A DNA stretch of 64,000 bases from an uncultured Spirochaetota bacterium (GTDB lineage Bacteria; Spirochaetota; Spirochaetia; SZUA-6; Fen-1364): the NCBI GenBank assembly GCA_963734545.1, contig CAVTHO010000009.1, positions 32,001-96,000 on the forward strand, read 5' to 3'. Below are positions 7,862 to 59,965 of the stretch, one piece after another. The notes below the pieces were generated by a model. That model searched no databases. It saw only the letters and a list, made by a program, of their open reading frames with translations, and was not told the DNA's origin. A program made the translations under genes and the position numbers. Positions within the stretch are counted from its first letter, which is position 1. The number at the start of each line of letters is the position of its first letter.

Positions 7862-7992
7862 GCAAATGCCACGGTGTACCGTGGCCGCAAATGCCACGGT
7901 GTACCGTGGCCGCAAAATGCCACGGTGTACCGTGGCCGCAAAATGCCACGGTGTACCGTGGCCGCAAAATGCCACGGTGTACCGTGGCCGCA
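7862..7992. repeat. Tandem array of 5 identical 18-bp hairpins GCCACGG-TGTA-CCGTGGC, period 26 (first 25); TACN-hairpin family
   Basis: Hairpins start at 7868, 7893, 7919, 7945, 7971, linked by CGCAAA(A)T; no unique spacers. Confidence 0.95.
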
Positions 7993-8077
7993 GTGATGAA
8001 TTTCAGCTCCCCGCGTGTTATATTGGTAGGCAAAAGCGACAGTCAATCCCGGTGGCGGGAATCGAGGAGGATATCAG

Positions 8078-8683
8078 ATGAAGAAGCTATTGATGCCGCT
8101 GACGGTGGTCGCGCTGCTGGCGCTGGCTGTCCCCGCGGCGTTCGCGGAGTGGGAACTGGGAATCGGGCTCACGCCCATCCAGGACACGACGTCAGCCGAC
8201 CCGAGAGCAGTCGACGGGATCCTCAATTTTCACGTCGGGTACAGCTGGTCGATCCTCTATGCGACCTGGGACGCATTTGCCATGCCCAACTACTGGGTGT
8301 ACAACGCAACATCATTCGTCGATCCGGTCCACGGATCGTATTACCCGGGCGCCGACGTGCCCGGATTCCTGAACCTGTTCGACGTGGGCATCAAGATCTA
8401 CCTGCGTCCCTTCATAGGGTATGCAGAAATCGGAACAAACATGCTCTATCTGTACGGCGGCCAGATCTACAAAGATCCGTACGGCAACCTGGGCGTGGGT
8501 GTCAATGGCCGGTTGGGTGCGGGAGTCAGGTTCGGAATGTGGGGAGTGAACATCTCGGGCACCCAGGTGTTTGCCTCGTGGTATGACCTGAGGGCGGCCC
8601 TCGACCAGGCCTTCCATCACGGGAACACCGCCGAGTTGACGGCCGGCAGCGTACTGAGCCTCAACTTCACGCTCTACTTCTGA
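8078..8683 (+). CDS. Probable outer-membrane beta-barrel protein
   Basis: AFA signal peptide, alternating aromatic/Gly strands, C-terminal LNFTLYF; GAGGAGG RBS. Confidence 0.7.
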   Translation: MKKLLMPLTVVALLALAVPAAFAEWELGIGLTPIQDTTSADPRAVDGILNFHVGYSWSILYATWDAFAMPNYWVYNATSFVDPVHGSYYPGADVPGFLNLFDVGIKIYLRPFIGYAEIGTNMLYLYGGQIYKDPYGNLGVGVNGRLGAGVRFGMWGVNISGTQVFASWYDLRAALDQAFHHGNTAELTAGSVLSLNFTLYF

Positions 8684-8699
8684 CAAGGGAGGACAGAAC

Positions 8700-9110
8700 A
8701 TGAAAATACGAAAAATACTGCCCTTGCTGCTGCTGGCATTCGGCTCGGTATTCCTGCTGTCGAGCTGCGACGCACTGCTGGACGCAATATTCTCCAACAA
8801 CAACATCAACGTGTATGTTTCGTCATATATACCGAACCGCGGCTTTTACCCGGGATATGACACCATGACCGTCGTTCTGACCGGACCTTACTCGGCATCC
8901 GTGTCGACCCGCTATGAAGGAGACGATGGTCTTTACATGTACTGGTCGATCTCGATCCCGAAGCTTGCCGACGGCAGCTACAGCGTATATGTAGTCTACA
9001 ATCACCCGTATGGAATAAACACCGGGACCTGGTTTTCTTCTACCGATTTCATTTCCTTCCCCATGAGCTCCGGCAGTCCTCACAACGTGAACTTGAGCTT
9101 CGATTTCTAA
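8700..9110 (+). CDS. Hypothetical lipoprotein
   Basis: Basic N-terminus, hydrophobic core, LLSS-C lipobox; GGAGG RBS. Confidence 0.7.
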   Translation: MKIRKILPLLLLAFGSVFLLSSCDALLDAIFSNNNINVYVSSYIPNRGFYPGYDTMTVVLTGPYSASVSTRYEGDDGLYMYWSISIPKLADGSYSVYVVYNHPYGINTGTWFSSTDFISFPMSSGSPHNVNLSFDF

Positions 9111-9137
9111 GATTCTCTTTCCGAAGGCTGTATGAGC

Positions 9138-9165
9138 AGCGCCCCTTCACGGGGCGCTTTTTTTT
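9138..9165 (+). terminator. Rho-independent terminator
   Basis: AGCGCCCC-TTCAC-GGGGCGCT followed by a T run, downstream of the lipoprotein gene. Confidence 0.85.
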
Positions 9166-10549: not shown

Positions 10550-10555
10550 CCTCGA

Positions 10556-10584
10556 ATCGTAGCGCGCGCTTTCCGTGTTGTCGA
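10556..10584 (-). promoter_or_regulatory. Promoter TCGACA-17-TACGAT, 6 nt before ATG (leaderless geometry)
   Basis: Read directly. Confidence 0.6.
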
Positions 10585-10685
10585 GGGTGCGACTCCTCCG
10601 AATACTCGGGCGGCGCCGCGGAAAAAAAGCGGGAAAGGTAAAAAGGAGGGAAAAACCCCTTTCCCGCCGGAAACAAAGTCTACAT

Positions 10686-15625: not shown

Positions 15626-18600
15626 CTATACCTTCGGTGCAAGCTCCAGTATGAGCTCTACCTCTCCTCTGCTGAGCTGGGTGACGCGCGAGATCTCCTG
15701 CACCGACCAGCCCTGGTGGGAAAGCTTGACGACCGTCTCCCGCTTGTCGAGAGGAGGAGCGCCGCGCTCGCCCTTTTCCTTCTTGGTTTCCGCCTTCATG
15801 ATGCTCTCGAGCAGCCGTACCTGCTCCTGTGCCTGCCTGCCGATCTCCTCGAACCTGGTTTCCGTGCGCGCCATCCATTCACGCGAGCTCTGCGCCTTCT
15901 CCAGGCGGCTCTCCAGCTCTTCGATGACTCCGCTGAGCTTCCCGACGGTCTGCATGGCGGTGTCCGCGTCTTTCTTGTTGGCGGCGAGCATCTCGTATTC
16001 GCCGCGCAGAGACGAGACCTTTGCCGCCAGCTCATCTGCCGTCCGGTCCGCCTCCCCCAGTGACTTCTCGATGTTCTCAAGACGCTGGAAGTTCCTGTCC
16101 ACGCCTTCCGATGTCACCGACAGTATTTCCTTCTTCTTCTCCAGTCTTTCGAACCCGCCCTCCACGGACTTGCCCATTTCCTCGAACTGCCGGATCTTGG
16201 CCTGGATCTGCTGGAGCGCGTCATTGCTGGACGACAGCGTATCCAGCTTGAGATCCACGTCCTTCGAGACCGCGATGATCTTCTTGAAGTCCCCGTCCAT
16301 CTCCTCGATTCGTCGTCTCTCGGCAAGGAACCGCGTGAGCTTCGTGGAGACCTCGTCGGCGACCTTCTTCGTCTTGGAAAGCTGGACCTCGATCTCGGAG
16401 AACTCCGCCCGGTCGGCGTTCAGCTTCGCCACTTCCTTCTTCATCTCGTCGATGCTGACTTCCAGGGCGGCCTTCAGAGTGTCCGCCCGCTCGAAGAGGC
16501 GCGTCTGGGAGGTGAAGCTCTTGACCCGCTTGTCGATCTCCACGAGGTTCGTCGAGAGCAGCTGGTAGCTTTCCTCGATCCGCCCGAAGAGTTTCTCCTG
16601 CATGGCATCGGCTTTTTCCTTGGTATCCACCAGGAGCTGCTTCTGTTCCTTGATTCTTCCCTCGACCTCGGTCTGCACCTCGCGCACCCGTTTCTGGCTG
16701 TCGAGCTGGAACCCATCCATCTGGGTCCGCAGCGCCTCCATTGCGGCTTCCGTCGTCTTCTTCAGATCCGCTTCGAACGAGGAGATGGTCTCTCCCATCT
16801 GGGCGAGCTCCTTCCGCAGGCCGATGCGCTCTTCGTTCGTGGACACCAGCAAGTCCTCTTTCTGCGCGGCGAACGCGTCCCTGATCGCGCCGACGGATGA
16901 TGCTGCCTCCGCAGAGAGGGAGGAAATCTTTTCCGCTATGGCGAGCTCGGCTTCCGCAAGCTGCTTCTTCGCCCCACCTTCCCAGGCCGCGATCTCGGTC
17001 CGCGAGGTTTCGAAGAGCTCGGTCAGCTCCTTGCGTCCCGCGGTCAGCTCCACGGAGAGCTCCTTGAGCCTCGATTCGATCTCCCGGTGCATCTTCCGGG
17101 TTGCGGCCTCCATCACGTCTTTCACGCCGCCCAGGTCCTTTTCAAAGGACAGGGAGGCGTCTTTCCGCGCCTTCTCGACGTCACCGCGGAGTGTCTCCCG
17201 CAGGGTCTGCACCGCCTCGTCCGCGGCAGCAGTGCGCTCCTTGACGTCGGCTTCGAAGCTCGCCGCGCGCTTCTCCATTTCCACCTGCCAGGCCTGGAAT
17301 TTCTCCTGCGTCATGGTGGACCGGGCGCGCAGGTCCGTGAAGAATTCCTCCTCGAACACGGAGAGCTTCTTCTCCGCGTCCTGGTAGGCGCGGGCTTTCA
17401 GCTCTTCCAGTCCTGCCTCCAGCTCTCCCATGCCCGCCTGGAGCTGCTCGCGCGCAATCGCGGCCCCGGCGATATCCGACTTCCATCCGGCAGCCAGCTC
17501 ATCCGCGAGCCCCTTCATCTCCGCGCGCACGCCCTCCGCCATCTTGTCCATTGTCTGGGAGAGGGATGCCCTCAGGGCATCCACGTCCCGGTTGGCATCC
17601 TCAAGGACCTTCACGCGGTAGTCCACGTCGCCCTGGTAGTCCGCAAGCCGCAGCTCGATCGTCTCGATGCTCTTCGCCAGCGTGGCCTCGTCCCCCTGGA
17701 TCCGTGAGGCAAGATTCGAGAGCCTGCCCGCGTTCTCCTGCTCCGCTTCGGCAAGCTGCGCTTTTGCGCCGTCTTCCCAGGCGGCAATCTCGGCGCGCGA
17801 GGTCTCGAACAGGTCCGCCAGGTCCTTGCGCCCCGCGTTGAGCTCCGCGGACAGCGCCTCGAGACGCGCCTCGATCTCGCGGTGCATCTTCCGCGATTCT
17901 GCCTCCATGGTGTCGCGGACGCTGCCCAGGTTCTTTTCGAATGATTGGGAGGCTTCCTTCCGGGCCCGTTCGATGTCTCCGCTCAGCGCCTCGCGCAGCG
18001 CCATGACCGATTCGCCGGCTGCCGCGGCGCGCGTTTTCACGTCCGCTTCCAGGCTTTCCACGCGCGCTTTGACATCCGCCTCGACGCTCGCCGCGCGCGC
18101 ATTGACGACCGCCTCCAGGCTCGCCGTGCGCTCCTTTACTCCGGCCTCGAAGCCCGCCGCTCGCTTCTCCATCTCCGCCTGCCATGACTGGAACTTTTCC
18201 TGCGTCATGGTGGAGCGGGCGCGCAGGTCGGCGAAGAACTCCTCTTCGAACATCGAGAGCTTCTTCTCCGCGTCCTGGTAGGCGCGCTTCTTCAACGTCT
18301 CCAGCTCCGCCTGGAGCTCTCCCATGCTCGCCTGGAGCTGCTGCCGGGTGGTCTCCGCGCCGGCAACCTCCGACTTCCATCCGTGTGTCAGCTCGGCGGC
18401 GAGCGTATCCGTCAACGCCTTCATTTCGGAGCGAACGGCCGCCCCCATCTTGTCCACCGTCTGCGCAAGCGAGGCGCGCAGGGCATCGACATCCCGATGT
18501 GCCTCGTCCAGGACCTTCATCCGGTAGTCGACGTCGGCCTGGTAGTCCGCCAGCCTCGATTCGACTGTCTCGATACTCTTCGCGAGCGCGGCCTTGTCCG

Positions 18601-20980
18601 CCTCGATCCGTGAGGAGAGCGAGGAGAACCTGCCCGTGTTCGCCAGCTCCGCATCGGCAAGGTGCTTCTTTGCGCCGTCTTCCCAGGCCGTAATCTCGGC
18701 GCGGGAAGATTCGAACAGCGCGGCCAGGTCCCGGCGCCCCACCTCGACTTCCCGGCTCATCTGCTCGAGACGCGCCTCGATCTCGGCGTGCATCTTCCGC
18801 GTTCCTGTCTCCATTGATTCCCGCACGCCGCCGAGATCCTTCTCGAACGACGACGAGGCATCCTTCCTGGCCTTCTCGATGTCGCCGCGCAGCGCGTCTC
18901 GAAGCGTCTGCACCGATTCTCCGGCAGCCGCGGTGCGCTGCATGATGTCCGCCTCGAACCCCGCCGTACGTTTTTCCATCTCCGCCTGCCAGGCCTGGAA
19001 CCTCGTCTGCGTCACCGTGGAGCGCGCGCGCAGGTCCGTGAGAAGCTCCTCCTGGAATGCCGTGAGCTTCTTCTCCGCCTCCTCGTGAGCGCGCGCCTTC
19101 AGGTCTTCCACGGCCGCCTGCAGCTCCGCCATGTCCGCCCGCAGCCGCTCCCGCGCCGCCGACGCGCCTTCAACCTCGGACTTCCAGCCCGTGGTGAGCT
19201 TCTCCGCGAATCCGTTCATTTCCGCGCGCATTGCCGCGGTCATCCTGTCCATCGTCTGGGCGAGCGCGCCCTGCAGCGCCTGGACCGACTGCCGGGCCGC
19301 CTCGGTGCGCTCTTTGACCTCTGCTTCGAGGCTCTCCACGCGCGCACCGGCATCCGTTTCAATGCTTTCCACGCGCTTGTTGACGGCAGCCTCGAGGCCT
19401 TCCACCCGCGCGTTCACCTCCGCCTCGACATTCGCCGTGCGCGCTTTGACGCCGGCCGCCAGGCCTTCCACCCGCGCATTCACGTCCGCCTCGACGCCCG
19501 CCGCGCGCTCCTCGACCTGGGCCGCAAGGCCTTCCACGCGCGCGTTGACATCCGCCTCGACGCCCGCCGCGCGCTCCTTGACCTCAGCCGCGAGGTTCTC
19601 CACCTGCGCGTTGATGTCTGCCCCGACTTCCGCGGCGCGTGCTTCGAAGTCGGCCTCGAAGCTTGCGGCGTGCTCTCTGATTCCTGCCTCGAAGCCCGCG
19701 GCATGCTCTCTGACTCCCGCCTCGAAGCTGGCCGCCCGTTCTCTGACCGCAGCCTCGAAGCTTTCCGCGCGCTTCTCCATCTCCGCCTGCCATGCCTCGA
19801 ACTTCTGCTGGGTCAGAGTGGACCGTGTGCGCAGATCGGCGAAAAACTCCTCTTCGAAAACCGAGAGCTGCCTTTCCGCGTCCTGGTATGCACGCGCCTT
19901 CAGCGCCTCCAGCTCCGCCCCAAGCTGCCCCATGCTCGCGTGCAGCTTCTCGCGGGTGGCTTCCGCGCCCGCAACCTCCGAGCTCCAGCCGGCCATCAGG
20001 TCGGTTGCGAGCTTGTCCGCGATCCCCTTCATCTCGGTACGCATGCTCGCCGCCATCTTGTCCATGGTCTGCCCGAGCGAGGTGCGCAGGGCGTCCACGT
20101 CGTGGTTCGCGTCTTCCAGGACCTTCACGCGATAGTCGACGTCCCCCTGGTAGTCCGCCAGCCTCGATTCGATGGTCTCTATGCCCCTGGCAAGGGTGTT
20201 TTCATTTATCTGGATGCGCGAGGACAGGCGCGTAAACACCTCGTCCTCCAGGCTCTCGCCTTTGCGGGCAGCCGCGGAAAGCCTGGCACGCAGATCCACC
20301 TCGAATGCATCCAGCGCCTTCGCGAGCCCCGCAATCCGCTCCTTTTCCGTCTGCTCCGCCCGCGCTCCCAGGCGTGCCATGTAGGCCGAAAAATCCTTCA
20401 CCTTCTTGTCCGACTCCACCAGCACCGCCGCCAGCGCGCCGACTTTCTCTTCCACGGTCCTGATCACCTCGCCGCGCGCGGTCTCCAGTGTTTCCCGGCC
20501 CTGGGCGGTGAATGCCTTCTGCATCTCGGGGATCAGCTTCTGCACCTTGTCGAGACGCGTCGCTGTCTCACCGATCTTTCGGCCGACCACATCGACGAAC
20601 GCGGATTCATCCCGCAGCTTCTTCAGGTTTGTGTCCACCCGTGATGACATAGCGGTGAGATCAGTGAGCGCTGTCTCGTAGTCCGCAAGACGCTTCTGGA
20701 TCGACTCCATCTCGGACGCCCTGCCCCGGAGCTGGTCATCCAGGCCGCGGGCATGAGCGATCAATTCCCTGCCCGTTTTCAGCTCCGCCTGGAGCGCAAT
20801 GGACAGGTCCTTCAGCTGCACGGTCTTTCCCTCGACGAGCGCGGAGAGGTTCTCCGTGATCTTGTCGCTGAACCGCTTGAGCTTTTCGAGAGATCTGTTG
20901 TTTCTGTCGATTGCGCGGAAGGCGATGACTATGAGAAGGACGACGACGAGGGTGATGAAATCACCAATTGAGAAAAACAT
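15626..20980 (-). CDS. Giant membrane-anchored coiled-coil protein (spirochaete SpiroCoCo type)
   Basis: N-terminal TM then DRNNRSLEKLKRF; 1784 aa helical body with large internal repeats; C-terminal HTH GWSVQEISR..LSRGEVELIL. Confidence 0.85.
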   Translation of the reverse strand: MFFSIGDFITLVVVLLIVIAFRAIDRNNRSLEKLKRFSDKITENLSALVEGKTVQLKDLSIALQAELKTGRELIAHARGLDDQLRGRASEMESIQKRLADYETALTDLTAMSSRVDTNLKKLRDESAFVDVVGRKIGETATRLDKVQKLIPEMQKAFTAQGRETLETARGEVIRTVEEKVGALAAVLVESDKKVKDFSAYMARLGARAEQTEKERIAGLAKALDAFEVDLRARLSAAARKGESLEDEVFTRLSSRIQINENTLARGIETIESRLADYQGDVDYRVKVLEDANHDVDALRTSLGQTMDKMAASMRTEMKGIADKLATDLMAGWSSEVAGAEATREKLHASMGQLGAELEALKARAYQDAERQLSVFEEEFFADLRTRSTLTQQKFEAWQAEMEKRAESFEAAVRERAASFEAGVREHAAGFEAGIREHAASFEADFEARAAEVGADINAQVENLAAEVKERAAGVEADVNARVEGLAAQVEERAAGVEADVNARVEGLAAGVKARTANVEAEVNARVEGLEAAVNKRVESIETDAGARVESLEAEVKERTEAARQSVQALQGALAQTMDRMTAAMRAEMNGFAEKLTTGWKSEVEGASAARERLRADMAELQAAVEDLKARAHEEAEKKLTAFQEELLTDLRARSTVTQTRFQAWQAEMEKRTAGFEADIMQRTAAAGESVQTLRDALRGDIEKARKDASSSFEKDLGGVRESMETGTRKMHAEIEARLEQMSREVEVGRRDLAALFESSRAEITAWEDGAKKHLADAELANTGRFSSLSSRIEADKAALAKSIETVESRLADYQADVDYRMKVLDEAHRDVDALRASLAQTVDKMGAAVRSEMKALTDTLAAELTHGWKSEVAGAETTRQQLQASMGELQAELETLKKRAYQDAEKKLSMFEEEFFADLRARSTMTQEKFQSWQAEMEKRAAGFEAGVKERTASLEAVVNARAASVEADVKARVESLEADVKTRAAAAGESVMALREALSGDIERARKEASQSFEKNLGSVRDTMEAESRKMHREIEARLEALSAELNAGRKDLADLFETSRAEIAAWEDGAKAQLAEAEQENAGRLSNLASRIQGDEATLAKSIETIELRLADYQGDVDYRVKVLEDANRDVDALRASLSQTMDKMAEGVRAEMKGLADELAAGWKSDIAGAAIAREQLQAGMGELEAGLEELKARAYQDAEKKLSVFEEEFFTDLRARSTMTQEKFQAWQVEMEKRAASFEADVKERTAAADEAVQTLRETLRGDVEKARKDASLSFEKDLGGVKDVMEAATRKMHREIESRLKELSVELTAGRKELTELFETSRTEIAAWEGGAKKQLAEAELAIAEKISSLSAEAASSVGAIRDAFAAQKEDLLVSTNEERIGLRKELAQMGETISSFEADLKKTTEAAMEALRTQMDGFQLDSQKRVREVQTEVEGRIKEQKQLLVDTKEKADAMQEKLFGRIEESYQLLSTNLVEIDKRVKSFTSQTRLFERADTLKAALEVSIDEMKKEVAKLNADRAEFSEIEVQLSKTKKVADEVSTKLTRFLAERRRIEEMDGDFKKIIAVSKDVDLKLDTLSSSNDALQQIQAKIRQFEEMGKSVEGGFERLEKKKEILSVTSEGVDRNFQRLENIEKSLGEADRTADELAAKVSSLRGEYEMLAANKKDADTAMQTVGKLSGVIEELESRLEKAQSSREWMARTETRFEEIGRQAQEQVRLLESIMKAETKKEKGERGAPPLDKRETVVKLSHQGWSVQEISRVTQLSRGEVELILELAPKV

Positions 20981-26696: not shown

Positions 26697-28001
26697 TTAA
26701 TCAATTTGGGGAAGGGAGAAATCGCCCGCGGAGTCGAGATGGACGAGGTGGACGTACTCCTTCCCATACCGGCGCGTCAGAGAAGCGAGGCTCGTTTCGG
26801 CATTTCTTTCGAGCACCACGACCTGGAAATCGCCGTTCGCATCGAAGAAGGGCAGGAGCACGATCACGTGATGGTGCTGGCGCAGCGTGGGTGTTCCTTC
26901 CTGTGATGCCTCCCGCGAAGCGGCGTTCACCGACCCGAGGTAGATCGTACCGGGGCGCTCGCGGGCAAGAAAATAGAGCAGCGCACGGAGACGGGGAACC
27001 GGGTATCCGGTGTCGCGGGTGTACGCCATGTGATCCGCGCTGCGCACGTCCAGGTCCTCATCCGGCAGGAGTATGCCCGGTACGCGCCTGTGCGATGCTC
27101 CGCGCGAGCCCGCGCGTCCAGTCCAGTCCGAAATAGGGATCCAATTCCTCTTCGTAGCGGGCACTCCACTTGTTGATCCGCATCGCGTTACGCGACTTCA
27201 GGGCCGCAATATCCGTGTTCCTGCCGGTGAGCGGCGCGTAGAAGCCGTCGACGATCCACTTGGCAAAGCCCGAGCAGTTGAAGCCCCCGGGCCCGCCGGA
27301 ACGCCGCTCGCGATGTACACCATGCGCCCGGCGCTGTCCATCGCGCCGTCGTCCATGTCCCGCAGGCCCTTCAGGCGCGCGCGCACCGAGCGGGCAACCT
27401 CCGCGAGCCGGATGTCACCGGGACCGGGCGAGGGAGCCAGGAGGAGCGGCCAGTCGATGGAGTTGCCCGTGAGGTCCATGATGCGCGCCAGCGGCGCCGT
27501 GAGCAGACGCTCGAACGCGACCGGCAGAACGACCTGGCTCAGGAAGAGCTCGCCGGAGAGAAAGACGTCCATGACGGTCCTGTCGCTGCGGGGAAACAGG
27601 CGGAGAAAGCAACCAGGATCGTTCTGCACGAATACCTTGGCCTGGATGAAGCTTCCATCCTTGAGGCTTCTCTTGATAATGAAGGTTCCCGCCCCCGCCA
27701 CGGGAAAGCTCCGGCCCTCCCGATTGGCGAAAACGAGGTAGAGAGAGCCTGACTGGGCGTCCGCCTGGAAGGAGACCTGCCCGCCGCCGCCGGGCTGGTT
27801 CACGATCATGCCCGCGCGCCGGGCGGCATCGCCGACCGGGGCGAAAATCGTGTCACGCAGAAGGCTCCGCGCCTCCCAATTCTCAGGCAGGGAAGGAGCA
27901 CTCCCGGGCGCACGAATGCCGGAGCTGCCGATGCCGGGAAAAGCGCAGACGGCGAGAAGAAAGAACGCCAGGGCCGCTCTACACCAGGAGAGTGTCCTCA
28001 T
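26697..28001 (-). CDS. Exported hypothetical protein with GFNCSGFAKW motif; two frameshifts (~27285, 27074-27080)
   Basis: ORF 27198..28001 continues in another frame GGFNCSGFAKWIVDG...DPYFGLDWTR, then into ORF 26697..27164. Confidence 0.65.
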
Positions 28002-33757: not shown

Positions 33758-34640
33758 AAGCTTTCGCACGATCGAGTCCCTCCCGGCCGCATCCTGGCCT
33801 CCGCCGAGACGAAGAAGAAAGAGAAACTCCCTGTTGCCTTTTCTGCCGCGAAGGGGGGACTCCATCGCGTCCTCCACTCCCACACCTTCGTCCGACAGCC
33901 CTGCAATGAGATCCGTGAGAATATCGCGAAGCGCGCCCTTTCCCTGCACGACCCCCCTGAAGTCCCGGGGCGGGCGCCTGTATTCGAACTGCGGCTTGAC
34001 CAGGAAAATTCCGCGTCTCGCCGCGGTGAGCCCCAATATATGCGCTGCTGCCTGGCGGATCGAGCGGAAAGACAGATCTGCCGCCGCGCTGTCGGGAACA
34101 GGATCAAGGTCAAGAGCCCGCACCGTCATGACGTTCGTGGATTCCATCACGCGCACTCTCAGGTCGGCGCGCAGCCGCCAGTCGAGCTGGTTTTCTCCGA
34201 CATCGATTGCGTACACCAGGGATGCGCCGCGGCGCAGCAGGCAATCGGTGAATCCGCCTGTGGAGCTGCCCGGCATCGATCCAGGTCGTTCCCGCGCAGG
34301 CGATTGCCCACAGGTCGAGGCCCGCCGCGAGCTTCTCCCCGCCGCGGGACACGTAGGGCGGCTTCTCGCGGACGCTGATCGCCGCGTCGGCGTGGACAAG
34401 AGTTCCCGGTTTCACGACCTTCTCTCCCCCCACCAGGACTTCCCCGCGGAGGATCTCCGCGAAAAGCTCCTTCTCGTCACGCGACGGGTAGATGGTCTTG
34501 AGCAGGTCGATGAGGCGGACCCTTCGGCGCGGTCCTCCGTGCATTTCTTCTCGGCGCGGTCCTCCGTGCATTTCTTCTCGGCGCGGTACCCCGCGCATTT
34601 CTTCTCGGCGCGGTACGGCGTGCTCGTTGCGCGGTCTCAC
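33746..34640 (-). CDS. tlyA: TlyA family rRNA (cytidine-2'-O)-methyltransferase; +1 frameshift at 34267-34273; repeat-derived N-terminus
   Basis: S4-like domain, YVSRGGEKL, D.GSSTGGFTD, DLSF, LVKPQFE, GNREF. Confidence 0.9.
34524..34634. repeat. TACN-hairpin family: 27-bp tandem units (3 complete plus the start of an expanded unit)
   Basis: TCGGCGCGGT at 34524, 34551, 34578, 34605. Confidence 0.93.
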
Positions 34641-35454: not shown

Positions 35455-35612
35455 GCGCGCGCCCTAGCCCGCACCGCCCGAAGGGCGTAGCCAGGGATGG
35501 CGAGGTCGGCCGAGGCCATGGATGGCCGAAAGGCCGACGCGGTATCCGTAGGGCGGCAGGCGCGCAGGGCGCGCAACTCCGCAAGGAGCGGAAGGGAGCC
35601 CACGCGCCGGGC
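35455..35612. repeat. Multi-hairpin palindromic intergenic element; shares 23 bp with 37280-37302
   Basis: GCCCGAAGGGC, GCCAGGGATGGC, GGCCATGGATGGCC, GGCCGAAAGGCC, CTCCGCAAGGAG; ATCCGTAGGGCGGCAGGCGCGCA at 35544. Confidence 0.7.
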
Positions 35613-35648
35613 CTAAATGTCTCTTGCGTGCCATCGCCCTACACGATC

Positions 35649-40300: not shown

Positions 40301-40715
40301 TGTAATTCCGGTAGGAGACGCCTCCGGTGAGCTGCTGCTTGACGTCCATGTCGAGGAAGCTGCTGTAGAGTATCCGCTTGGCGTCCGCGCCGAGCAGCCT
40401 GACGCCGAAGAACCCGATCTGGCTCTTGGCGTCCGCCCACGCCTTGAGCGTGGGATCCGACAGGCGCAGGTCGAACGAGGCGGCGATGAAGTCCTTCTTT
40501 GCCGCGTTGGAGAATATCTCGAGATTTGCCTGGTGAAACCGGTCTATGCGGGAAACGAGCCGATCGAGATTGTCCTGATAGACCTGCTCGATCCTCGGCA
40601 GGAAGAAGCTCGTCTGAAGGACGTCGAAAAGCCCTGAGAAGCCGAGCACGGCGAAGCCGGCGAAGAGGAGAAGCGACGCGAGGAGACTGATTGCAATCTT
40701 GAGGCTCTGTCGCAT
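37386..40715 (-). CDS. Large membrane protein with extracytoplasmic domain and very acidic low-complexity cytoplasmic region
   Basis: TM - ~270 aa domain - TM - EEAEAV hexapeptide repeats - globular C-terminus; start uncertain (40715 or 40742). Confidence 0.8.
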   Translation of the reverse strand: MRQSLKIAISLLASLLLFAGFAVLGFSGLFDVLQTSFFLPRIEQVYQDNLDRLVSRIDRFHQANLEIFSNAAKKDFIAASFDLRLSDPTLKAWADAKSQIGFFGVRLLGADAKRILYSSFLDMDVKQQLTGGVSYRNYNEDNTSIPVTAFPAAPDQKPKVLIDGPHGWFVYALPAQAPAKANSPPQFGTLLFYVSQQKLLSELTVTPGVPVEKVALVGSAGVLINFDPAGSKAVEDDLVAIWNSNPGSSSFTAPLTLSSQGGPQAAYRVFSQRLAAGGMAGLVEPSSLFEMADLMKGLLLATFFLTVFLFLYLIFNLRTDPLDVLRQRVKRFQIQLITELVESPGGADWNKWRGEMESRKDEITWQIQRGIGRVSKKQKPIIDEYLSKSWSEILDLVSRRAEAPAAAAAGAIDISRLESLIQAALKNANFILPEQKVSPARALQVEEIRAEEVSESAEPGARRAKPAPAAVSQSAAAEEVEEAEAVEEIEEVQEAETIDEAEVVEEAEAVEEVETIDEAETVEEAEVVEEAEAVEEAETVEEAAAVEEAEEAAPVEEAAAVEEYETIEEVETVEDAETAEAEPAEPAEALPEPEGVAAEARSVTGAASDASGRLSPPQAVPEGLEEEPAELEPMEDEAEVAAVSAPQKPEARKKGGAVTDFVEIRVPGEAVDMFSDLALALEAEAIDTSGELLEELEPLPEVRPLPPEPVEEGLELLPVVDEERHDDSHGHGSMASGRIEALESRTVEPEEYEERARIEAPPPEPLIQPEVLVEAEDLVEPERGRPTPVEPAELAFEEVVDFEELESVEEEAVESVEEVAVVPSAADTPQALDALLASGAIKIWTVEELQRFLEEGKSAIVMEDGLFRIKEEVYTAGNKPSENRDDEKLRQIVEEVVKHEMEGELSEVSGGQPAEAESGLSGIGDLISAEDTLDLSDDFLRDQAAAEEAPPAQAETASPIRLKRNGLDYDEFLSSYPRSFTHTTQMKTLVELSRRVSAVSAGLFIKKVQTYALDLTVGMSERTVRTLAFSAGEPAFKSLFAPRKYFAVNKNSADVAFLRVKIDPDDLRYMKRVLLFPANFRGQEAYLLLGFAGETEIVISQILAKLVVR

Positions 40716-40797
40716 GAGAAAACGATGTACCTTCTCACCCAAATATCGGCGTGAAAGGCCCTGCGGCCGAGGCTATTTTCCACTGCCGGACAGGCCG

Positions 40798-43477: not shown

Positions 43478-43560
43478 CCGACGCGCGGTACGGCGTACTC
43501 GCCGAGCGGGTACACACGCACTCCGCGCATTTGCCCGACGCGCGGTGCACCCCGCGCGCG
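43478..43560. repeat. TACN-hairpin family: loop-expanded unit plus simple unit between rpsM and rpsK
   Basis: CCGACGCGCGGT at 43478 and 43535 (57 = 27+30). Confidence 0.85.
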
Positions 43561-46687: not shown

Positions 46688-46742
46688 GAACGGGTACGGC
46701 CTTCGGGCCGAGCGCGTACTCGCGCACTCCCGTTGTCCGCGT
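46688..46742. repeat. TACN-hairpin family: second-level expanded module between rplR and rpsE
   Basis: ACGGG-TAC-[GGCC TTCG GGCC]-GA-[GCGCG TACT CGCGC]-ACT-CCCGT. Confidence 0.85.
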
Positions 46743-46749: not shown

Positions 46750-47109
46750 CTATAAGCTGATGCCGGCCTTGCGTGCGCCGTCCGCAATCGCCTTTATCTT
46801 GCCGTGATAGCGGTAGCCGTTCCTGTCGAAGACGACCGCCGCGATGTTCTTGGCCTTGAGCCTCTCCCCGATGAGCAGCCCGAGCTTCTCCATTTCCGCG
46901 ACCTTGTTGGCGATGCTCCGATGCTCCTTCTCCAGATTCGAGGCGGTGGCCAGCGTGGCTCCCGCGGCATCGTCGATGGCCTGCACGTAGGTGTAGCGGT
47001 TCGACTTGTACACGGTGAGCCGGGGCCGCTCGGGAGTGCCCTGGATCTTCTTGCGGATGCTCGCCTTTCTCTTCAGACGCTTGCGCGACTTGTCGATGAT
47101 CTTCTTCAC
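46750..47109 (-). CDS. rplR: 50S ribosomal protein L18
   Basis: RPRLTVYKSN, VFDRNGYRYHG. Confidence 0.96.
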   Translation of the reverse strand: MKKIIDKSRKRLKRKASIRKKIQGTPERPRLTVYKSNRYTYVQAIDDAAGATLATASNLEKEHRSIANKVAEMEKLGLLIGERLKAKNIAAVVFDRNGYRYHGKIKAIADGARKAGISL

Positions 47110-47121
47110 CGCTTCATTCTC

Positions 47122-47661
47122 CTACTTGATCCCCGATTTGCCGACCTTGCGGCGCACGTACTCGTTCTCGTACTTGATGCCCTTGCCCTTGTACGGCTCC
47201 ACGGGCCGGAACGAACGGATCTCGGAGGCGATCTGCCCCACCTGCTGTCGATCCGCGCCTTTCACCGTCACCTTGGTGTTCGCCTCGACTTCCATGGTGA
47301 TTCCCGGGGGGATCGGGTACTCGATGGGCGTCGAATAGCCGAGGTTCAGGACCAGGGCCTTGTTCTTTATTTCAGCCTTGTACCCCACCCCGGTGATGAC
47401 GAGTATCTTCGAGAAGCCGTCCGAGAGCCCGATGAGGGTGTTCTTTATCAGGTTGCGGTACAGACCATGGAGGCTCTTCGCCTTCCGCGAATCGTCCGCG
47501 CGCGCAACGACCACCGAATCTCCTTCGATCTTCACCGACACCTCAGGCGCGTACTCCTGGTCGACCTTGCCCTTGGAGCTCTCCAGGAGCACGTGGCCAT
47601 CCTGCACGGAGACCTTGACCCCTTTGGGTATCTTGACCGGTAAACGTCCGATTCGCGACAC
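47122..47661 (-). CDS. rplF: 50S ribosomal protein L6
   Basis: MSRIG, EPYKGKGI. Confidence 0.97.
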   Translation of the reverse strand: MSRIGRLPVKIPKGVKVSVQDGHVLLESSKGKVDQEYAPEVSVKIEGDSVVVARADDSRKAKSLHGLYRNLIKNTLIGLSDGFSKILVITGVGYKAEIKNKALVLNLGYSTPIEYPIPPGITMEVEANTKVTVKGADRQQVGQIASEIRSFRPVEPYKGKGIKYENEYVRRKVGKSGIK

Positions 47662-48273: not shown

Positions 48274-48289
48274 TATCCTCTCCGCCTGC

Positions 48290-49156
48290 CTAAATGCGCT
48301 GCGTACATCGCGCGCGCGCCGCACAAATGCGCTGAGTACATCGCCGGCCTATTTTCCGGAACGGCATTCCCAGCCGCGCCAGGAGGCTCCGCGCTTCCTG
48401 GTCCGTCTTCGCGGTGGTCACGACCGCGATATTCATGCCGCTCACCCTTTCGATCTTGTCATAGTCGATCTCGGGAAAGATGATCTGCTCCGTCACCCCG
48501 AGGGAATAGTTCCCGTGCCCGTCGAATGCATTGGGGTTGGCCCCTCGGAAGTCCTTGATCCTCGGCATGGCCACGTTGACCAGCCGGTCCAGGAACTCGT
48601 ACATCACGTTCCCGCGCAGTGTCACCATGGCGCCGACTTCCTGTCCTTGGCGGACCTTGAAGGTCGCGATGGACTTCTTTGCCTTCGTGCGCACCGCTTT
48701 ACGCCCCGTGATCTGCATCATCTCCTGCGTGGCGGAATCGAGAAGCTTCTTGTTCACGATGGCCTCACCGAGACCCATGCTGACGATGATCTTCGATACC
48801 CGCGGTATCTGCATCGTGCTTTTGTAGGAAAATTCTTCCTTCAGGTCTTTTGTCACCGTGTCCAGGAAGAGGGCCTTCAGGCGCGGCTTGTAGCCGGGAG
48901 GATCGGCAACGGGTTTGGCTTTCGGCTTGCTCTCCGCCTCCTGCCGCTGACCCTTCTGGCCCTTGGGCTGCTTGTCGCCCTTGGCAGCTTTCTCGGAACG
49001 GGGAGCCCCTTCCGCCGCGTTCCGCGGGGCCCCGTGACTCTTCTCCCCCTTCGGCTGCCCGGCTTTCTGGCCCTGCTCCTTCACGGGAGCCTGGTCTGCG
49101 GCGGCCTTGGCCTCCGGGGCGGCGCCCTCGGCGCCCGACTGTTTTTCCTTGCTCAC
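48290..49156 (-). CDS. rplE: 50S ribosomal protein L5 with ~85-aa N-terminal extension (true stop possibly TAG at 48349-48351)
   Basis: [26 protein letters not shown]; GTG start overlaps the rplX stop. Confidence 0.95.
48292..48346. repeat. Two degenerate TACN-family units (period 33), inverted relative to most copies
   Basis: AAATGCGCTGNGTACATCGC at 48292 and 48325. Confidence 0.7.
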
Positions 49157-53137: not shown

Positions 53138-53506
53138 TTAGACGCCCTCGAAGATGGCGATCTTTTCCTCAGGGGCGATCGTGATGATCGCCTTCTTCCA
53201 GGACGCGGTATAGCCGAGCCTGTAGCGCACCCTCTTGGGCTTTGTCGCCGTCTTCAGCACGTTACACTTGAGGGGATGCACGTTGTAGAGCTTGCGCACA
53301 GCGTCCATGATCTGGTACTTGTTCGCCCGGCTGTCCACCTTGAACACGTACTTGTGGCTTTCCCGCATCACGTTCGTCTTCTCGGTCACCACCGGCTCGA
53401 TGACGATTCTCTCGATCCGGTGCGGTACGCCGTGCGTTTCCGGCTGGCGCGGTACTCCGCGCGTTTCTGGCCGGCGCGGTACTCCGCGCATTTCTTCTGG
53501 CGTCAT
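53138..53506 (-). CDS. rplW: 50S ribosomal protein L23 with repeat-derived N-terminal extension
   Basis: [20 protein letters not shown]; ATG overlaps the rplD stop (ATGA). Confidence 0.95.
53417..53500. repeat. TACN-hairpin family: three 27-bp units inside the 5' end of rplW
   Basis: CGGTAC at 53423, 53450, 53477; the last unit GCGCGG-TACT-CCGCGC-ATTTCTTCT matches the tlyA units. Confidence 0.93.
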
Positions 53507-54904: not shown

Positions 54905-54918
54905 TCCTGCAGCCTCAC

Positions 54919-54995
54919 TGCGACGCGGTACGCCGCGTCATTCGTTGCGACGCGGTACGCCGCGTCATTCGTTGCGACGCGATACGCCGCGTCGC
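54919..54995. repeat. TACN-hairpin family: three 27-bp units GACGCGG-TACG-CCGCGTC-ATTC between rpsJ and rplC
   Basis: Units start at 54919, 54946, 54973. Confidence 0.93.
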
Positions 54996-55304
54996 TCATT
55001 GCTTGATTTCGACGTCCACGCCGGCGGGCAGCTCCAGACGCATGAGGGCGTCCATGACCGCGGGGGTGGGCTCGAGGATGTCGATCAGCCTCTTGTGGGT
55101 CCGCATCTCGAATTGCTCGCGCGATTTCTTGTGCACGTGCGGCGAGCGCAGGACCGTGAACTTGTTGATCCTCATGGGAAGCGGGATGGGGCCCGAGACC
55201 CGAGATCCCGCCTTCAGCACCGTCTGCACGATGGACTTCGCGCTCTGATCGATGAGCTCGATGTCGAAACCCCGCAGGCGCACTCGAATCCTTTCCCTGG
55301 CCAT
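54996..55304 (-). CDS. rpsJ: 30S ribosomal protein S10
   Basis: [29 protein letters not shown]. Confidence 0.97.
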
Positions 55305-55317: not shown

Positions 55318-55367
55318 CCGGTCACGGTACCCCGTGACATTCCCGGTCACGGTACCCCGTGACGTTC
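55318..55367. repeat. TACN-hairpin family: two 25-bp units GTCACGG-TACC-CCGTGAC-ATTC between tuf and rpsJ
   Basis: Units start at 55318 and 55343. Confidence 0.9.
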
Positions 55368-55423
55368 CTTCGCGCCGTGCCGGCAGCACGCCGGGCGTTA
55401 CATCCGCGTCTTCGCGCGGCGCC

Positions 55424-56658: not shown

Positions 56659-56815
56659 GCGCGGTACCCCGCGCCTTTTTTTCCTGTGCGCGGTACCTTG
56701 CACGGTAACCCGTGCAGTTTCGCGCTTTTTTCCCCACCGCAGTACGGCGTACCCGCTACACGGGTACGGCCTCCGGGCCGAGCGCGTGCTCGCGCACTCC
56801 CGTCCTCCGCGCTTC
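56659..56815. repeat. TACN-hairpin family: simple, singly nested and doubly nested units between fusA and tuf
   Basis: GCGCGG-TACC-CCGCGC; GCGCGG-TACC[TGCACGG-TAAC-CCGTGCA]..CGCGC; TAC[hp]..[ACGGG-TAC[hp]GA[hp]ACT-CCCGT]..CCGCGC. Confidence 0.85.
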
Positions 56816-56846
56816 TCTGTTCCGCCCCGCTCGCTCAAATCCCCGG

Positions 56847-58934
56847 CTATTTTTTCGAGCCGCGGGTCTTGGTCACAAGCTCTTCCTGGATCGATCGAGG
56901 GGTGTCCTGGTAATGGGAGAATTGCATGGTGTGTGACGCGCGCCCCTTGGTCATGGAACGCAGCGTCGTCACGTACCCGAACATGGAACGCAAGGGTACG
57001 AGGGCTTTCACCACCTTACTCCCAGGCCGATCTTCGATTCCCTCTACGTGGCCCATTCGCGCGCCGAAGTCCGAGATGACATCCCCGAGGTGCTCCTCGG
57101 GAGTCGCGCACTCCACGGCCATGATCGGTTCAAGGATAGTCGGTTTGGCTTTTGCACAGCCCGACTTGTATGCCATCGATGCCGCCACTTTGAAGGCCAT
57201 TTCGCTGGAGTCCACGTCATGGTAGGACCCGTCCAGCAGCGATGCCCGGAAGTCCACCATCGGGTAGCCTCCCAGCACCCCGTTTTCCATGGCTTCCTTG
57301 ATGCCCTTCTCCACCGCGGGAACATATTCCCGCGGCACGCGGCCGCCGATGACCTTGTTCTCGAAAATGAACCCCGTTCCGGCAGGGAGAGGCTCGAAGC
57401 TCATGATCACGTGCCCATAGGCCCCGTGGCCGCCGGTCTGCTTCACGAACTTGCCCTCCGCCTCGGCGCTGGCCCGGATGGTTTCGCGGTAGGCAACCTC
57501 GGGTGTTCCGACGTTCGCCCCCACGTTGAACTCGCGGAACATCCGTTCCACGAGGACCTCCAGGTGCAGCTCGCCCATGCCCCAGATGATCGTCTGGCCC
57601 GTTTCCTTGTCGAAACGCACCTTGAACGTCGGGTCCTCCTCCGAGAGCTTGTGCAGGGCCGAGGAGAGCTTCTCCTCGTCTTCCCTGGTCTTCGGCTCGA
57701 TGGAGACGGAAACAACCGGGTCGGGAAAGACCATGGATTCCAGGATGACCTGCCGCTCTTCGTCGCACAGCGTGTCACCCGTGGTGGTCTTTTTCAGACC
57801 CACGGCTGCCGCGATGTCACCCGGATAAACGGCCTTGATCTCTTCCCGCTCGTTCGCGTGCATCCTCAGTATCCGTGTCACCCGCTCCCGCCTGTCAGCG
57901 GTCGAGTTGTAGATGTACGACCCCGCCGTCAGCGTTCCCGAATACACACGGATGAAAGTCAGCTTCCCCACAAAGGGGTCCGTCATGATCTTGAATGCAA
58001 GCGCCGCGAAAGGCTCGTCATCCCTGGGAAAGCGCTGGATATAGTCCCCGCTGCTGGGGACCGTTCCCATGGTCGGCGGAACGTCCGCCGGCGAGGGAAG
58101 GTAGTCCACGACTGCGTCAAGAAGAGGCTGGATGCCCTTGTTCTTGAATGCGCTTCCGCACACGACAGGGAATATCCTGCCGCTCACCGTGGCTGTCCGC
58201 AGGGCCGTTCTGATGGCATCTTCGCCGATTTCTTTGCCGTCGACGTAGTCCGCCATCATTGCGTCGTCCGTCTCTGCCAGCTTCTCCACCATCGTAGCCC
58301 GCGCCGCTTGGGCGGCTTTCATGACCTTGGCGGGGATCTCCACCTCACGGAATTGCGCCCCGAGAACGTCTTCGTCCCAGATCAATCCGCGCATCCGGAC
58401 CAGGTCCACCAGCCCGGCAAAATCCCCCTCGATTCCGATGGGAACCTGTATGGCGACCGCGTTTGCCCCGAGCTTGGCGTGCATTTCCTCCACGACTTCC
58501 TCGAAGCGCGCTCCGGTCCTGTCCATCTTGTTGATGAACGCCACACGGGGGACGTTGTATCGGTTGGCCTGCTTCCAGACCGTCTCGCTCTGAGGCTCGA
58601 CGCCTTCGACGGCCGAGAAAACCCCGATTGCTCCGTCCAAAACTCTCAAAGAACGTTCCACTTCGACAGTAAAGTCGACGTGTCCCGGCGTGTCGATGAT
58701 GTTGATCTGCACGCCGCGCCATTCACAGAAGGTCGCGGCCGCCGTGATGGTGATGCCGCGCTCCTTCTCCAGATCCATCCAGTCCATCTTGGCTTCGCCA
58801 TCATGGACTTCACCGATCTTGTGTGTCCTGCCGGTATAGTACAAAACCCGTTCTGTCGTCGTCGTCTTACCGGCGTCAATATGGGCCATTATCCCGATAT
58901 TGCGTGTCGACGACAGGGGATACCGCGATTCCAT
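56847..58934 (-). CDS. fusA: Elongation factor G
   Basis: [45 protein letters not shown]. Confidence 0.98.
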
Positions 58935-58955
58935 AAGGTGAGCGTGCTTGCCGTT

Positions 58956-59429
58956 CTACCAGCGGTAGTGGGCAAAAGCCTTGTTCGCCTCCGCCATCTT
59001 ATGGGTATCTTCCTTCTTCTTGATCGCGGAACCGGTGTTGTTGAAAGCGTCGACGAGCTCGGCCGCGAGCTTCTCCGCCATCGACCTTCCGTGCCGGCTG
59101 CGCGAATATCCTATGATCCAGCGCATGGCCAACGCGTCCCTGCGCTCTTCCCGGATCTCCACCGGGACCTGGAGGGTCGCCCCTCCCACCCTGCGCGACT
59201 TCACCTCCACCACGGGCTTGACGTTTTCCAGCGCCTTCTGGAAGACTTCCACAGGATCCTTGCCCGAAACCTTCTGGGCAATGATGTCGAGCGCCGAATA
59301 GATGCTCCCGTAGGAGATGCTCTTCTTGCCCTGCTCCATCATGCGGGCGACGAATTTCCCGATGACCGGGTTCTTGTACTTGGGATCCAGGAGGATCCTT
59401 TTTTTCCGAATCAACTGCCCTCTCGGCAT
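58956..59429 (-). CDS. rpsG: 30S ribosomal protein S7
   Basis: [26 protein letters not shown]. Confidence 0.97.
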
Positions 59430-59496
59430 CTCGTTTCCTTCTCCTATGGGCTCGCTTTAGTGCATCCCTGCACTCGCTCGCCCTCGCCTTCCGTGG

Positions 59497-59871
59497 CTAT
59501 GCCTTCGGTCTCTTGGTGCCGTACTTGGACCGGGCCTTCTTGCGGTCTTCAACGCCGAGGGTATCCTTGGCACCGCGAATGATGTGGTAGCGGACGCCGG
59601 GGAGGTCTTTCACTTTTCCGCCGCGGATGAGCACCACGGAGTGCTCCTGAAGGTTGTGGCCGATGCCGGGGATGTACGCCGTGACGTCTATCCCGTTGGT
59701 CAACCGCACGCGGGCAACCTTGCGGAGAGCCGAGTTCGGCTTCTTGGGGGTTACGGTCATGACACGCGTGCACACTCCCCTTTTCTGAGGGCAGTTCTGG
59801 AGGGCCGGGGACTTCGTCTTCTTGCGGACCGCCTTGCGTCCCATCCTCACCAGCTGGTTGATCGTCGGCAT
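59497..59871 (-). CDS. rpsL: 30S ribosomal protein S12
   Basis: [29 protein letters not shown]. Confidence 0.98.
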
Positions 59872-59899
59872 AAACCCTTCCTGCTACCTTTCTCTTCTT

Positions 59900-59965
59900 G
59901 ACGGCGTTCGCGCCGAACGGGTACAGCCTCACGCCGAGCGCGTACTCGCCCACTCCCGCAGCGTA
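59900..59965. repeat. TACN-hairpin family: doubly nested, decayed copy in the rpsL leader
   Basis: [GGCG TTCG CGCC]GA[ACGGG-TAC..GCC-GA-GCGCG TACT CGCCC-ACT-CCCG]. Confidence 0.8.

Follow-up and report, generated by a model that had tools for sequence, protein, structure and literature searches.

The 64,000-nucleotide window analysed here (positions 32001-96000 of contig C9, CAVTHO010000009.1, in the assembly GCA_963734545.1 of an uncultured Spirochaetota bacterium) carries a lineage-restricted family of miniature palindromic DNA repeats, which resemble repetitive extragenic palindromic (REP) elements and turn over fast. The basic unit is a small hairpin, and the most unusual property of the family, newly found here, is a 28-nt double hairpin that is nested in the loops of other hairpins. 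An enzyme that reads the hairpins, a variant of the classical Y1 type included, is in our view the most likely driver of the family, with a probability of roughly 55%. The host genome (G000) is a 5.14-Mb assembly in 10 contigs with 62-63% GC, 89% complete, and its closest named relatives are metagenome-assembled genomes (MAGs) labelled only 'uncultured Spirochaetota bacterium'. Sequencing runs sharing parts of the window region originate from wetland, peat and freshwater-sediment metagenomes. The genomes compared are mostly fragmented, incomplete MAGs (relatives 69-97% complete, G002 96%), and because of this incompleteness the absence of a gene counts little in either direction.

The hairpins occur far more often than base composition would predict. 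The window contains 16 copies of the 10-mer CGGTACNCCG, where 100 dinucleotide-preserving shuffles gave a mean of 0.33 and a largest count of 3, and 14 of the 16 matches lie in six repeat loci (7864-7992, 34584, 53417-53495, 54919-54993, 55318-55368 and 56662). The two remaining matches, at 42786 and 51902, were rejected as repeats and are ordinary conserved coding sequence; the GTAC at 42786 is present in neither of the two closest genomes and that at 51902 in one of the two. A hairpin descriptor (perfect stem of at least 6 bp with an NGTA or TACN loop) gave 13 window matches against 0.14 in the shuffles (largest 1), and its stricter version, with AAT at the 5' foot, gave 10 against 0.02, an enrichment of ~90-fold or more. 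On the 1.03-Mb contig C7 the corresponding counts were 52 against 4.7 (~11-fold) and, with the foot, 37 against 0.2 (185-fold). The whole genome holds 204 perfect hairpins with a stem of at least 6 bp and an NGTA loop, 123 of them with the foot, and the density in the window is about five times that of the genome (13 per 64 kb vs 204 per 5.14 Mb). Like REPs, these are short, palindromic, GC-rich stem-loops at high copy, and most of the window loci lie in spacers. An earlier inspection of the window's letters without database searches (the sequence-only reading) had proposed a dispersed structural family with a conserved loop and flank and covarying stems, and both the excess over shuffled sequence and the re-pairing of the stems bear it out.

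On the strand opposite to the one used in that reading, the basic unit of 20-27 bp consists of 5'-RAAT, a GC-rich stem of 6-7 bp ending in CGG, a 4-nt NRTA loop, the complementary stem and, usually, CGC. Among 367 hairpins closed by CGG/CCG, with 4-nt loops and stems of at least 6 bp, the loop is NGTA in 143 and NATA in 65 (208 together). Because NATA loops occur beside NGTA, the invariant part of the loop is TA and not GTAC; the TACN loop first proposed (NGTA on our strand) is real, but the consensus is wider than it allowed. The statement that neither a GTAG nor a CGTC tag accompanies the stem was correct, the 5' flank being RAAT; of 112 unique units, 106 have A at position -6. Stems fall into subfamilies, the commonest being CCGCGG (47), TCCGCGG (25), GCGCGG (13), GTCACGG (12) and GCCACGG (10), with others besides.

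Pairing is conserved while the paired bases are not. At 266 genomic CGGNGTACCG sites, chosen by loop and three closing pairs alone, the four pairs beyond CGG are Watson-Crick in 78, 76, 72 and 43% of cases, against 46, 59, 36 and 27% for partner-shuffled sites. The pair types vary: pair 4 is G-C in 142 and A-T in 55 sites, and pair 6 is C-G in 108, G-C in 60 and T-A in 17. A reversed control motif (86 sites) pairs at 24-29%, equal to its own shuffles. Folded as single-stranded DNA, the units yield predicted hairpins and three-way junctions, and neighbouring units are arranged directly in 53 and inversely in 4 of the 57 adjacent pairs genome-wide. The loci in the window, with the periods found by Tandem Repeats Finder (TRF), are as follows.

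7864-7992, plus strand: simple array of five direct 25-26 bp units AAAT-GCCACGG-TGTA-CCGTGGC-CGC, in a divergent spacer upstream of a plus-strand gene starting at 8078; TRF period 26, 5.0 copies, 99% matches; DNA fold -47.8 kcal/mol, z -6.3.
29182-29258, minus strand: composite with host AAAT-GCGCGG...CCGCGC, the loop holding CACGGG-AGTA-CCCGT-T-CGGCG-AGGA-CGCCG, then a degenerate unit; matches the 28-nt core with 1 substitution (C9 61217).
34524-34624, minus strand: simple array of ~3.4 direct 27-bp units GAAGAAAT-GCGCGG-GGTA-CCGCGC-CGA, two with decayed loops, between a YmdB-like gene (stop at 34642) and an FtsJ-like gene; TRF 27 bp x3.4 at 34524-34614.
43483-43558, minus strand: composite AAAT-GCGCGG-AG-[double hairpin]-TA-CCGCGC together with a degenerate hairpin, in the spacer upstream of the S11 gene, whose S11 domain begins at residue 100 of the longest open reading frame (ORF); matches the core with 3 substitutions (C9 75491).
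46690-46733, minus strand: three-way-junction composite of 44 nt in a ribosomal-operon spacer, reading ACGGG-AG-[TGCGCG-AGTA-CGCGC-T-CGGCC-CGAA-GGCCG]-TA-CCCGT; predicted DNA fold an outer stem around two hairpins, -18.5 kcal/mol, with 0 of 200 shuffles as good.
53417-53500, minus strand: in-frame array of 84 nt (3 x 27 bp + 3 nt) right after codon 2 of rplW (uL23); TRF 27 bp x2.9 at 53417-53495.
54915-54995, minus strand: simple array of three direct 27-bp units AATGA-CGCGG-CGTA-CCGCG-TCGCAACG, placed after the rpsJ stop (54996-54998) and ahead of the rplC start (54904), folding as three hairpins; TRF 27 bp x2.8 at 54919-54993.
55318-55368, minus strand: simple array of two direct 25-bp units GAAT-GTCACGG-GGTA-CCGTGAC-CGG, located after the tuf stop and before the rpsJ ribosome-binding site; TRF 25 bp x2.0.
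56659-56814, minus strand: cluster in the fusA-tuf spacer, comprising a three-level composite, a unit with the insert ACTGCACGG-GTTA-CCGTGCAAG and a simple GGCGCGG-GGTA-CCGCGC.
59902-59960, minus strand: composite of 59 nt upstream of rpsL, a double hairpin with another double hairpin in its first loop.

The sequence-only reading had counted about 12 loci of one architecture. Five loci (29185, 43478, 46710, 56659-56814 and 59902-59960) turn out to be nested composites rather than simple units, in which the loop of a host hairpin is interrupted by a double hairpin. The commonest loop insert genome-wide is a core of 28 nt, CGGG-AGTA-CCCG-TT-CGGCG-AGTA-CGCCG, present in 49 copies at up to 5 substitutions. 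TA adjoins its left end in 38 of the 49 copies and its right end in 31, with 23 copies having both, whereas the genome-wide frequency of TA is 1.6%. A recognisable host hairpin surrounds 31 copies, in both orientations: 18 read stem-NG-TA[core]TA-stem' and 13 read stem-TA[core]TA-CN-stem'. The same 28-nt core is 100% conserved across species, and its stem variants in relatives (ACGAG...CTCGT and ACAGG...CCTGT) stay paired. The first loop of the core may itself host another double hairpin, giving three-way junctions, with three levels of nesting in the fusA-tuf spacer, and a third insert type, ACTGCACGG-NNTA-CCGTGCAAG, likewise sits in loops. At orthologous loops the core is polymorphic, empty in one genome and filled in another (rpsJ-rplC, 34524 and 56659). 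Its termini share only TACGG, at most a 5-nt terminal match, and since it starts with AC after T and ends with GT before A, duplication of TA and blunt insertion at GT^AC both fit.

As far as searched, the family is found almost only in one genus of uncultured Spirochaetota. A 32-nt core pattern, allowing up to 2 mismatches, gave 25 matches in the host genome and 1-36 copies each in 11 of 18 other genomes of the genus, but none in 12 genomes of the order that belong to other genera; its reversed control had no match in any genome. A 21-nt unit pattern gave 34 matches in the host and a single match in one of 400 other genomes sampled across the phylum. A search of viral contigs for the core gave no matches. 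These longer patterns were used because the 10-mer proved too unspecific for taxonomy: it was dropped as a taxonomic probe, the control motif counting 40-60 per strand, and its twofold excesses in unrelated genera are mostly CGGCGTACCG in the places listed (three genomes of one genus). Within the genus of the host, the 10-mer exceeds its control about threefold in G000, G002, G014 and G016 and more than twofold in G017, and lies at or below it in G003, G006, G007, G008 and G015.

Comparison between relatives shows how quickly the repeats change. The host genome was compared with G002 and G014 (alignments 77-93% identical, ~90% over the ribosomal-protein region), and the S10 operon was collected from 17 relatives, with a tree built from rpsJ, rplC and rplW excluding G018, whose matches were partial. 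A BLAST census of insertions and deletions broke up around the repeats, yielding no clean fraction, and was used qualitatively. At the rpsJ-rplC spacer, 18 orthologous loci comprise 8 filled with 1-3 units, 9 empty (11-13 nt) and 1 with unrelated sequence (G012); the host has three units, its sister G002 one, and G014 one, the core sitting in its loop. In the tree, all filled sites fall within a single clade, in 8 of its 10 genomes (G009 and G010 are empty), and this pattern implies either one gain with two clean losses or several independent gains. The units stay paired despite base changes, as in GACGCGG/CCGCGTC vs GGCGCGG/CCGCGCC. Metagenome contigs with at least 90% likeness include some in which precisely the 81-nt rpsJ-rplC array is missing (one comes from an RNA library) and others with a single unit in place of the tuf-rpsJ pair. 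These are short unitigs from relatives, whose uncovered parts say nothing, and only joints bridging an array were used; they give a weak but independent signal of the same polymorphism.

At the start of rplW, 17 of 17 relatives read ATGAC.. straight into the conserved N-terminus and only the host carries the array, which appears as an 84-nt gap in the alignments to both G002 and G014. The 59902-59960 composite is likewise confined to the host, G002 and G014 reading gatacgc|tcaag or gatacgc|ccaag across the site. Three spacers (43478, 46710 and 56659) hold differing elements in each of the three ~90%-identical genomes. Thus the 43483-43558 composite is absent from G002 and replaced by a different sequence in G014; the 46690-46733 site has a different element in each, and the composite found there in the host matches many dispersed G002 and G014 loci at 88-100% identity, mostly 92-100%; and the fusA-tuf spacer measures 233 nt in the host, 156 nt in G002 and 327 nt in G014, with all unit sets different. 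The unit orthologous to 34524 contains the core in reverse orientation in G002 and G014 and lacks it in the host. At 7864-7992 there is a shorter, decayed version in G002 and none in G014. The tuf-rpsJ site has the same stem type in G002 (two units, decayed), G014 (three, one with a nested insert) and G012 (three, period 20), and family units were not seen there in the other relatives examined. Further gains, duplications and half-deletions of units separate the host from G002 and G014 at 47110, 48300 and 50130, a half-deleted unit being that at 47100-47125. New loci thus come and go on a time scale of ~10% DNA divergence, and array copy number changes between close relatives. The sequence-only reading had kept in view that the hairpins could be fixed regulatory structures. 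With orthologous sites empty, filled, differing in copy number or occupied by different elements at ~90% DNA identity, this is excluded.

The units sit in operon spacers, including those of the ribosomal protein super-operon, and, at lengths divisible by three, inside genes as extra peptide. Among neighbouring unit pairs deep in called ORFs, 23 of 26 have a period that is a multiple of three, against 12 of 30 elsewhere, a contrast that rests on crude ORF calls. The array in rplW is the clear coding case. Its 84 in-frame bases account for the Pfam Ribosomal_L23 match beginning only at residue 34 of 122, and as the stretch from the array to the conserved IERIV motif offers no ATG, GTG or TTG, we infer that it is translated; the ATGA stop/start overlap of rplD and rplW is retained. 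In an ORF for an Lhr-like helicase, a 5 x 27 bp array is flanked on either side by Pfam domains.

Two other ORFs that contain units deserve mention. At G000:C7:117720-121715, an apparent ORF of 1331 aa runs through two genes, for an ABC permease and an alpha-L-rhamnosidase, the array between them encoding RRIRGVPRR repeats; such arrays can create false fused ORFs. In the window, the minus-strand ORF 27979-29811 (610 aa) combines a MerR-HTH domain (residues 5-69) with a UDPGP (UDP-glucose pyrophosphorylase-type) domain (241-538), with the 29182-29258 composite between them. It may be a true fusion, or two genes with a spacer that stays open.

It is conceivable that the hairpins are mainly functional and kept by selection, as mRNA stabilisers, processing sites, terminators, modulators of translational coupling or protein-binding sites on DNA, dispersal being secondary. 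All 11 window loci are in the sense orientation of the local genes (no T run follows the hairpin in that orientation), and the fivefold density of the window points the same way. At rpsJ-rplC, the units of the filled clade are kept with paired stems, and each carries an ATGA, the first overlapping the rpsJ stop, giving a predicted mini-ORF coupled to the rplC start. However, the closest genomes differ in which sites are occupied, the same spacer has unrelated elements or none, and nine relatives do with an rpsJ-rplC spacer of 11-13 nt. Genome-wide, 52 loci are sense and 38 antisense, which is not significant, and copies inside genes occur in both orientations. Rfam covariance models run at the gathering score on both strands of the window gave no match, and interior stem mismatches (5 G:T vs 3 A:C) show no strand preference. 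An attempt to identify the strand of the selected structure from wobble mismatches was abandoned, the excess of C:A being traced to the outermost position of one subfamily with a 5-bp stem. A primarily functional origin is therefore unlikely, in our judgement.

What kind of process then spreads the family? The ends of IS200/IS605 elements and REPs are read as folded hairpins by Y1 HUH enzymes. In the present family, the fixed loop and the 5' tetranucleotide at the foot would be what a trans-acting protein reads on the folded single strand. Since the loop and foot are conserved while the stem covaries freely, we infer that a nuclease or recombinase seeds new copies and the insertions into loops. 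Replication slippage could then grow and shrink the arrays, and selection might merely filter the outcome, keeping reading frames open and operons translationally coupled.

The serious rival is an origin that needs no enzyme, through host processes alone: slippage would make the arrays, template switching at quasi-palindromes the stems, and gene conversion or illegitimate recombination the new sites. The template-switch correction of quasi-palindromes is an established mutational mechanism. Array units are near-identical, shared mismatches included, which suggests local duplication, as do the great preponderance of direct over inverted neighbours, the differing copy number at orthologous arrays and the half-deleted units; moreover, a candidate enzyme was found nowhere. 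Slippage, however, cannot bring a founding copy to a fresh location such as the uL23 start or 59902-59960. The core, placed at one precise loop position in both orientations with TA on both sides, is hard to obtain by untargeted recombination, and the fixation of the loop and of the 5' RAAT while stems drift suggests recognition beyond palindromy. With these points in mind, we hold host processes alone to be the less probable explanation, though they deserve to be taken seriously.

A number of observations weigh against an enzyme as the driver, above all the outcome of searching for one. The sequence-only reading had envisaged a non-autonomous system whose mobilising enzyme lies outside the window, and had suggested looking for RAYT, IS200 TnpA or reverse transcriptase genes flanked by dense copies. 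The PF01797 profile, run over the whole assembly, finds one gene (C4:159630-159989), a 160-aa TnpA of classical IS200 type, and family units do not flank it, so that this part of the proposal gained no support. Within the genus, 12 of 21 genomes have PF01797, in the form of IS200-like proteins of ~150 aa with the exception of a few fragments, and it is unmatched in G002, G003, G006 and G012, incomplete MAGs that all carry the elements; the search detects E. coli in the control panel. G002 has as many repeats as the host (316 motif sites, 18 cores). Four near-identical IS200 copies in G017 are inserted next to ..TT and not GTAC. The IS630-type DDE_3 domain (PF13358) is unmatched in the incomplete MAGs G000, G002 and G012; 15 of 20 other genomes have it, among them G007 and G015, which are free of the core. 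IS200-type and IS630-type genes were accordingly rejected as partners, having no phyletic match with the repeats. RAYT was not found in the host assembly (89% complete) or in the genus genomes searched. Nor did the host genome yield an autonomous parent of the form H1...gene...H2, in which the core's two hairpins would form the ends; two distant H1...H2 pairs are separate core copies. Ten genes are flanked by repeats on both sides: four that were scanned are FliG, a PAP2 protein, a PDZ protein and one without a Pfam match, two further ones are rpsJ and tuf, and no nuclease- or transposase-like product appears among those scanned.

The insertion sites add to this list. At the orthologous sites compared, no clean target-site duplication is visible for the basic unit. 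A blunt insertion at GT^AC would also account for the arrangement TA|core|TA, as would a deletion, and at 34524 parsimony favours loss of the core in the host genome. The orientation counts given above show no significant bias, and a replication-strand bias was looked for and discarded: 89 of 112 loci lie in regions of weak GC skew and the remainder are split evenly, leaving no link to GC skew. The period statistic, finally, is weakened by one 'deep ORF' that is the two-gene read-through described above.

The sole Y1 gene of the host lies in the stretch G000:C4:158130-161489 (tnpA at 1408-1890 on its minus strand) and adjoins a putative N6-adenine methyltransferase-like ORF. The resident IS200 region appears lower in GC by eye and has end hairpins CCACCGCC-tat-GGCGGTGG and AAATCCACCGCC-tct-GGCGGTGGATT.

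The repeats could instead be classical REPs or PATE-like derivatives whose Y1 HUH transposase, either a RAYT or the resident IS200 TnpA, the assemblies lack or hold in unrecognised form. In IS200/IS605 elements a tetranucleotide 5' of the hairpin foot guides cleavage, and RAAT sits where that tetranucleotide lies. The right-end hairpin of the resident IS200 type, AAATCCACCGCC-tca-GGCGGTGGATTT, shares the AAAT foot and the CCACCG/CGGTGG stem with one repeat subfamily; this likeness of the right-end foot (AAATCCACCG) may be taken as a lead only. Short-read MAGs, in addition, often lose IS copies. Against this stand the lack of a GTAG tag and of an inverted-dimer layout, the restriction of PF01797 genes in the genus to the short IS200 type, with none in the 96%-complete G002, and an IS200 that is unflanked by family units and inserts at sites unrelated to them. 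Such an origin seems to us very unlikely.

Returning to the hairpin-reading enzyme that we favour, one may speculate further about the nested inserts. Together with its relatives, the core would represent targeted mobile DNA of a smaller class than any seen so far, inserting in either orientation at the TA or GTAC exposed in a loop and so building nested, fractal-like three-way junctions, and the enzyme that moves them would be neither a RAYT nor of the IS630 type. This extension is tentative, and we consider it more doubtful than probable.

REP-type repeats rank with the most frequent features of bacterial genomes that lack an explanation, and their spread is understood, in part, for the GTAG/RAYT class alone. 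The present family lacks the tag, partner enzyme and dimer layout looked for in REPs, yet it behaves as mobile DNA on short time scales. Its testable insertion signature (TA in a 4-nt loop, either orientation, a 28-nt payload) offers a handle for finding a new hairpin-reading enzyme. Essential genes evidently tolerate the repeats, as seen in the predicted 28-residue extension at the start of uL23 and in the arrays wedged between translationally coupled ribosomal protein genes. The arrays may serve as hypervariable strain markers for an uncultured wetland lineage, and they are a source of assembly breaks and false fused ORFs in MAGs.

Other repeats are present in the window. At 48285-48350 there is a 33-nt tandem duplication (a degenerate unit of the type AAATGCGCTG-NGTA-CATCGC...) that is single-copy in G014 and G002. 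Between rpsL and rpsG (59445-59496), a 52-nt segment absent at this site in G002 and G014 belongs to another repeat family with CCCTCGCC-type motifs, and matches many dispersed loci of both genomes at 84-95% identity. The 179-nt stretch 35469-35647, for which G014 has 4 nt instead, is rich in other palindromes (GGCCGAGGCCATGGATGGCCGAAAGGCCGAC-like), and the region contains further small insertions in G002, one of them a core-like piece. Unrelated to the hairpin family are in-frame tandem repeats of 33/66 bp at 18022-19763, in the minus-strand ORF 15626-20980 (1784 aa), and of 18/54/72 bp at 39027-39288, in the minus-strand ORF 37386-40742 (1118 aa).

In size, copy number and location the family is REP-like, yet it is without the GTAG tag, the CGTC architecture, the RAYT partner and the inverted-dimer layout. 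In published descriptions, REPs are given as 20-40 bp, in a GTAG and a CGTC superfamily (PMC3733652), or as 21-65 bp (PMC3184786). Like REPs and the bacterial interspersed mosaic elements (BIMEs) they form, the spirochaete units are tiny GC-rich stem-loops at high copy, mostly intergenic, often operonic and in some cases intragenic, with stems that vary between families and that are thought to act as folded single strands (PMC3733652, PMC3184786). Unlike GTAG REPs, they have a RAAT flank in place of the GTAG/GTRG tag, and no RAYT was found in the genomes searched; unlike the inverted dimers of BIMEs, they form direct tandem arrays, conserve an NRTA loop and receive a second module in their loops. 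CGTC REPs are recorded from five phyla, Spirochaetes among them, and 'apparently lack a dedicated transposase' (PMC3733652). They offer a precedent in the same phylum for small palindromes with no known partner enzyme, but have stems of 8-9 bp whose first two pairs are A-T, along with a terminal CGTC and a CCA-like tail (PMC3733652). The stems here, compared by description, are GC-rich and of 6-7 bp, CGTC is not conserved and the 3' flank is CGC; the GACGCGG/CCGCGTC subfamily happens to end in CGTC, which is confined to it. The sequence-only reading called the system undescribed. This holds in that no account was found in the literature searched, while a related spirochaete family may stand in the genome lists of PMC3733652.

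Mycobacterial interspersed repetitive units (MIRUs) measure 40-100 bp and lie in polycistronic spacers, with open frames overlapping the neighbouring genes (PMC3184786, citing Supply et al. 1997). They resemble our family in their tandem units in operon spacers, empty and filled sites between species and variable copy number (PMC3184786), whereas they are not simple covarying hairpins, and the spirochaete units are 20-27 bp with a fixed loop and no significant genome-wide orientation bias. In-frame repeat fusions are known, as are ERIC-type elements with TA on both flanks (PMC3184786). The TA flanks of the core are as expected for the TA target duplication of miniature inverted-repeat transposable elements of the Correia/CREE, ERIC-type and IS630/Tc1-related kinds (PMC3184786), but those are ~100-230 bp with clear terminal inverted repeats, against 28 nt and a terminal match of up to 5 nt here; of the cognate DDE transposase, no DDE_3 match was found in the host, G002 or G012. 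The small dispersed repeats (SDRs) of Elhai et al. 2008 are cited in PMC3116915.

As to PATE-like derivatives of IS200/IS605, the foot and stem of one subfamily resemble the IS200 right end (AAATCCACCG), while the loop, the inner stem and the left end differ. Rickettsia palindromic elements are ~100-150 bp long. Like them, the spirochaete repeats are palindromes placed in-frame in protein genes, where they add peptide segments, but the coding inserts here are multiples of 24-27 bp units. The SDRs of Nostoc and Anabaena are reportedly ~21-27 bp long and mobile in appearance, with some hairpins, nesting and no known mechanism. In another phylum and with other sequences, they would be the closest precedent for the ultra-small nested elements described here.

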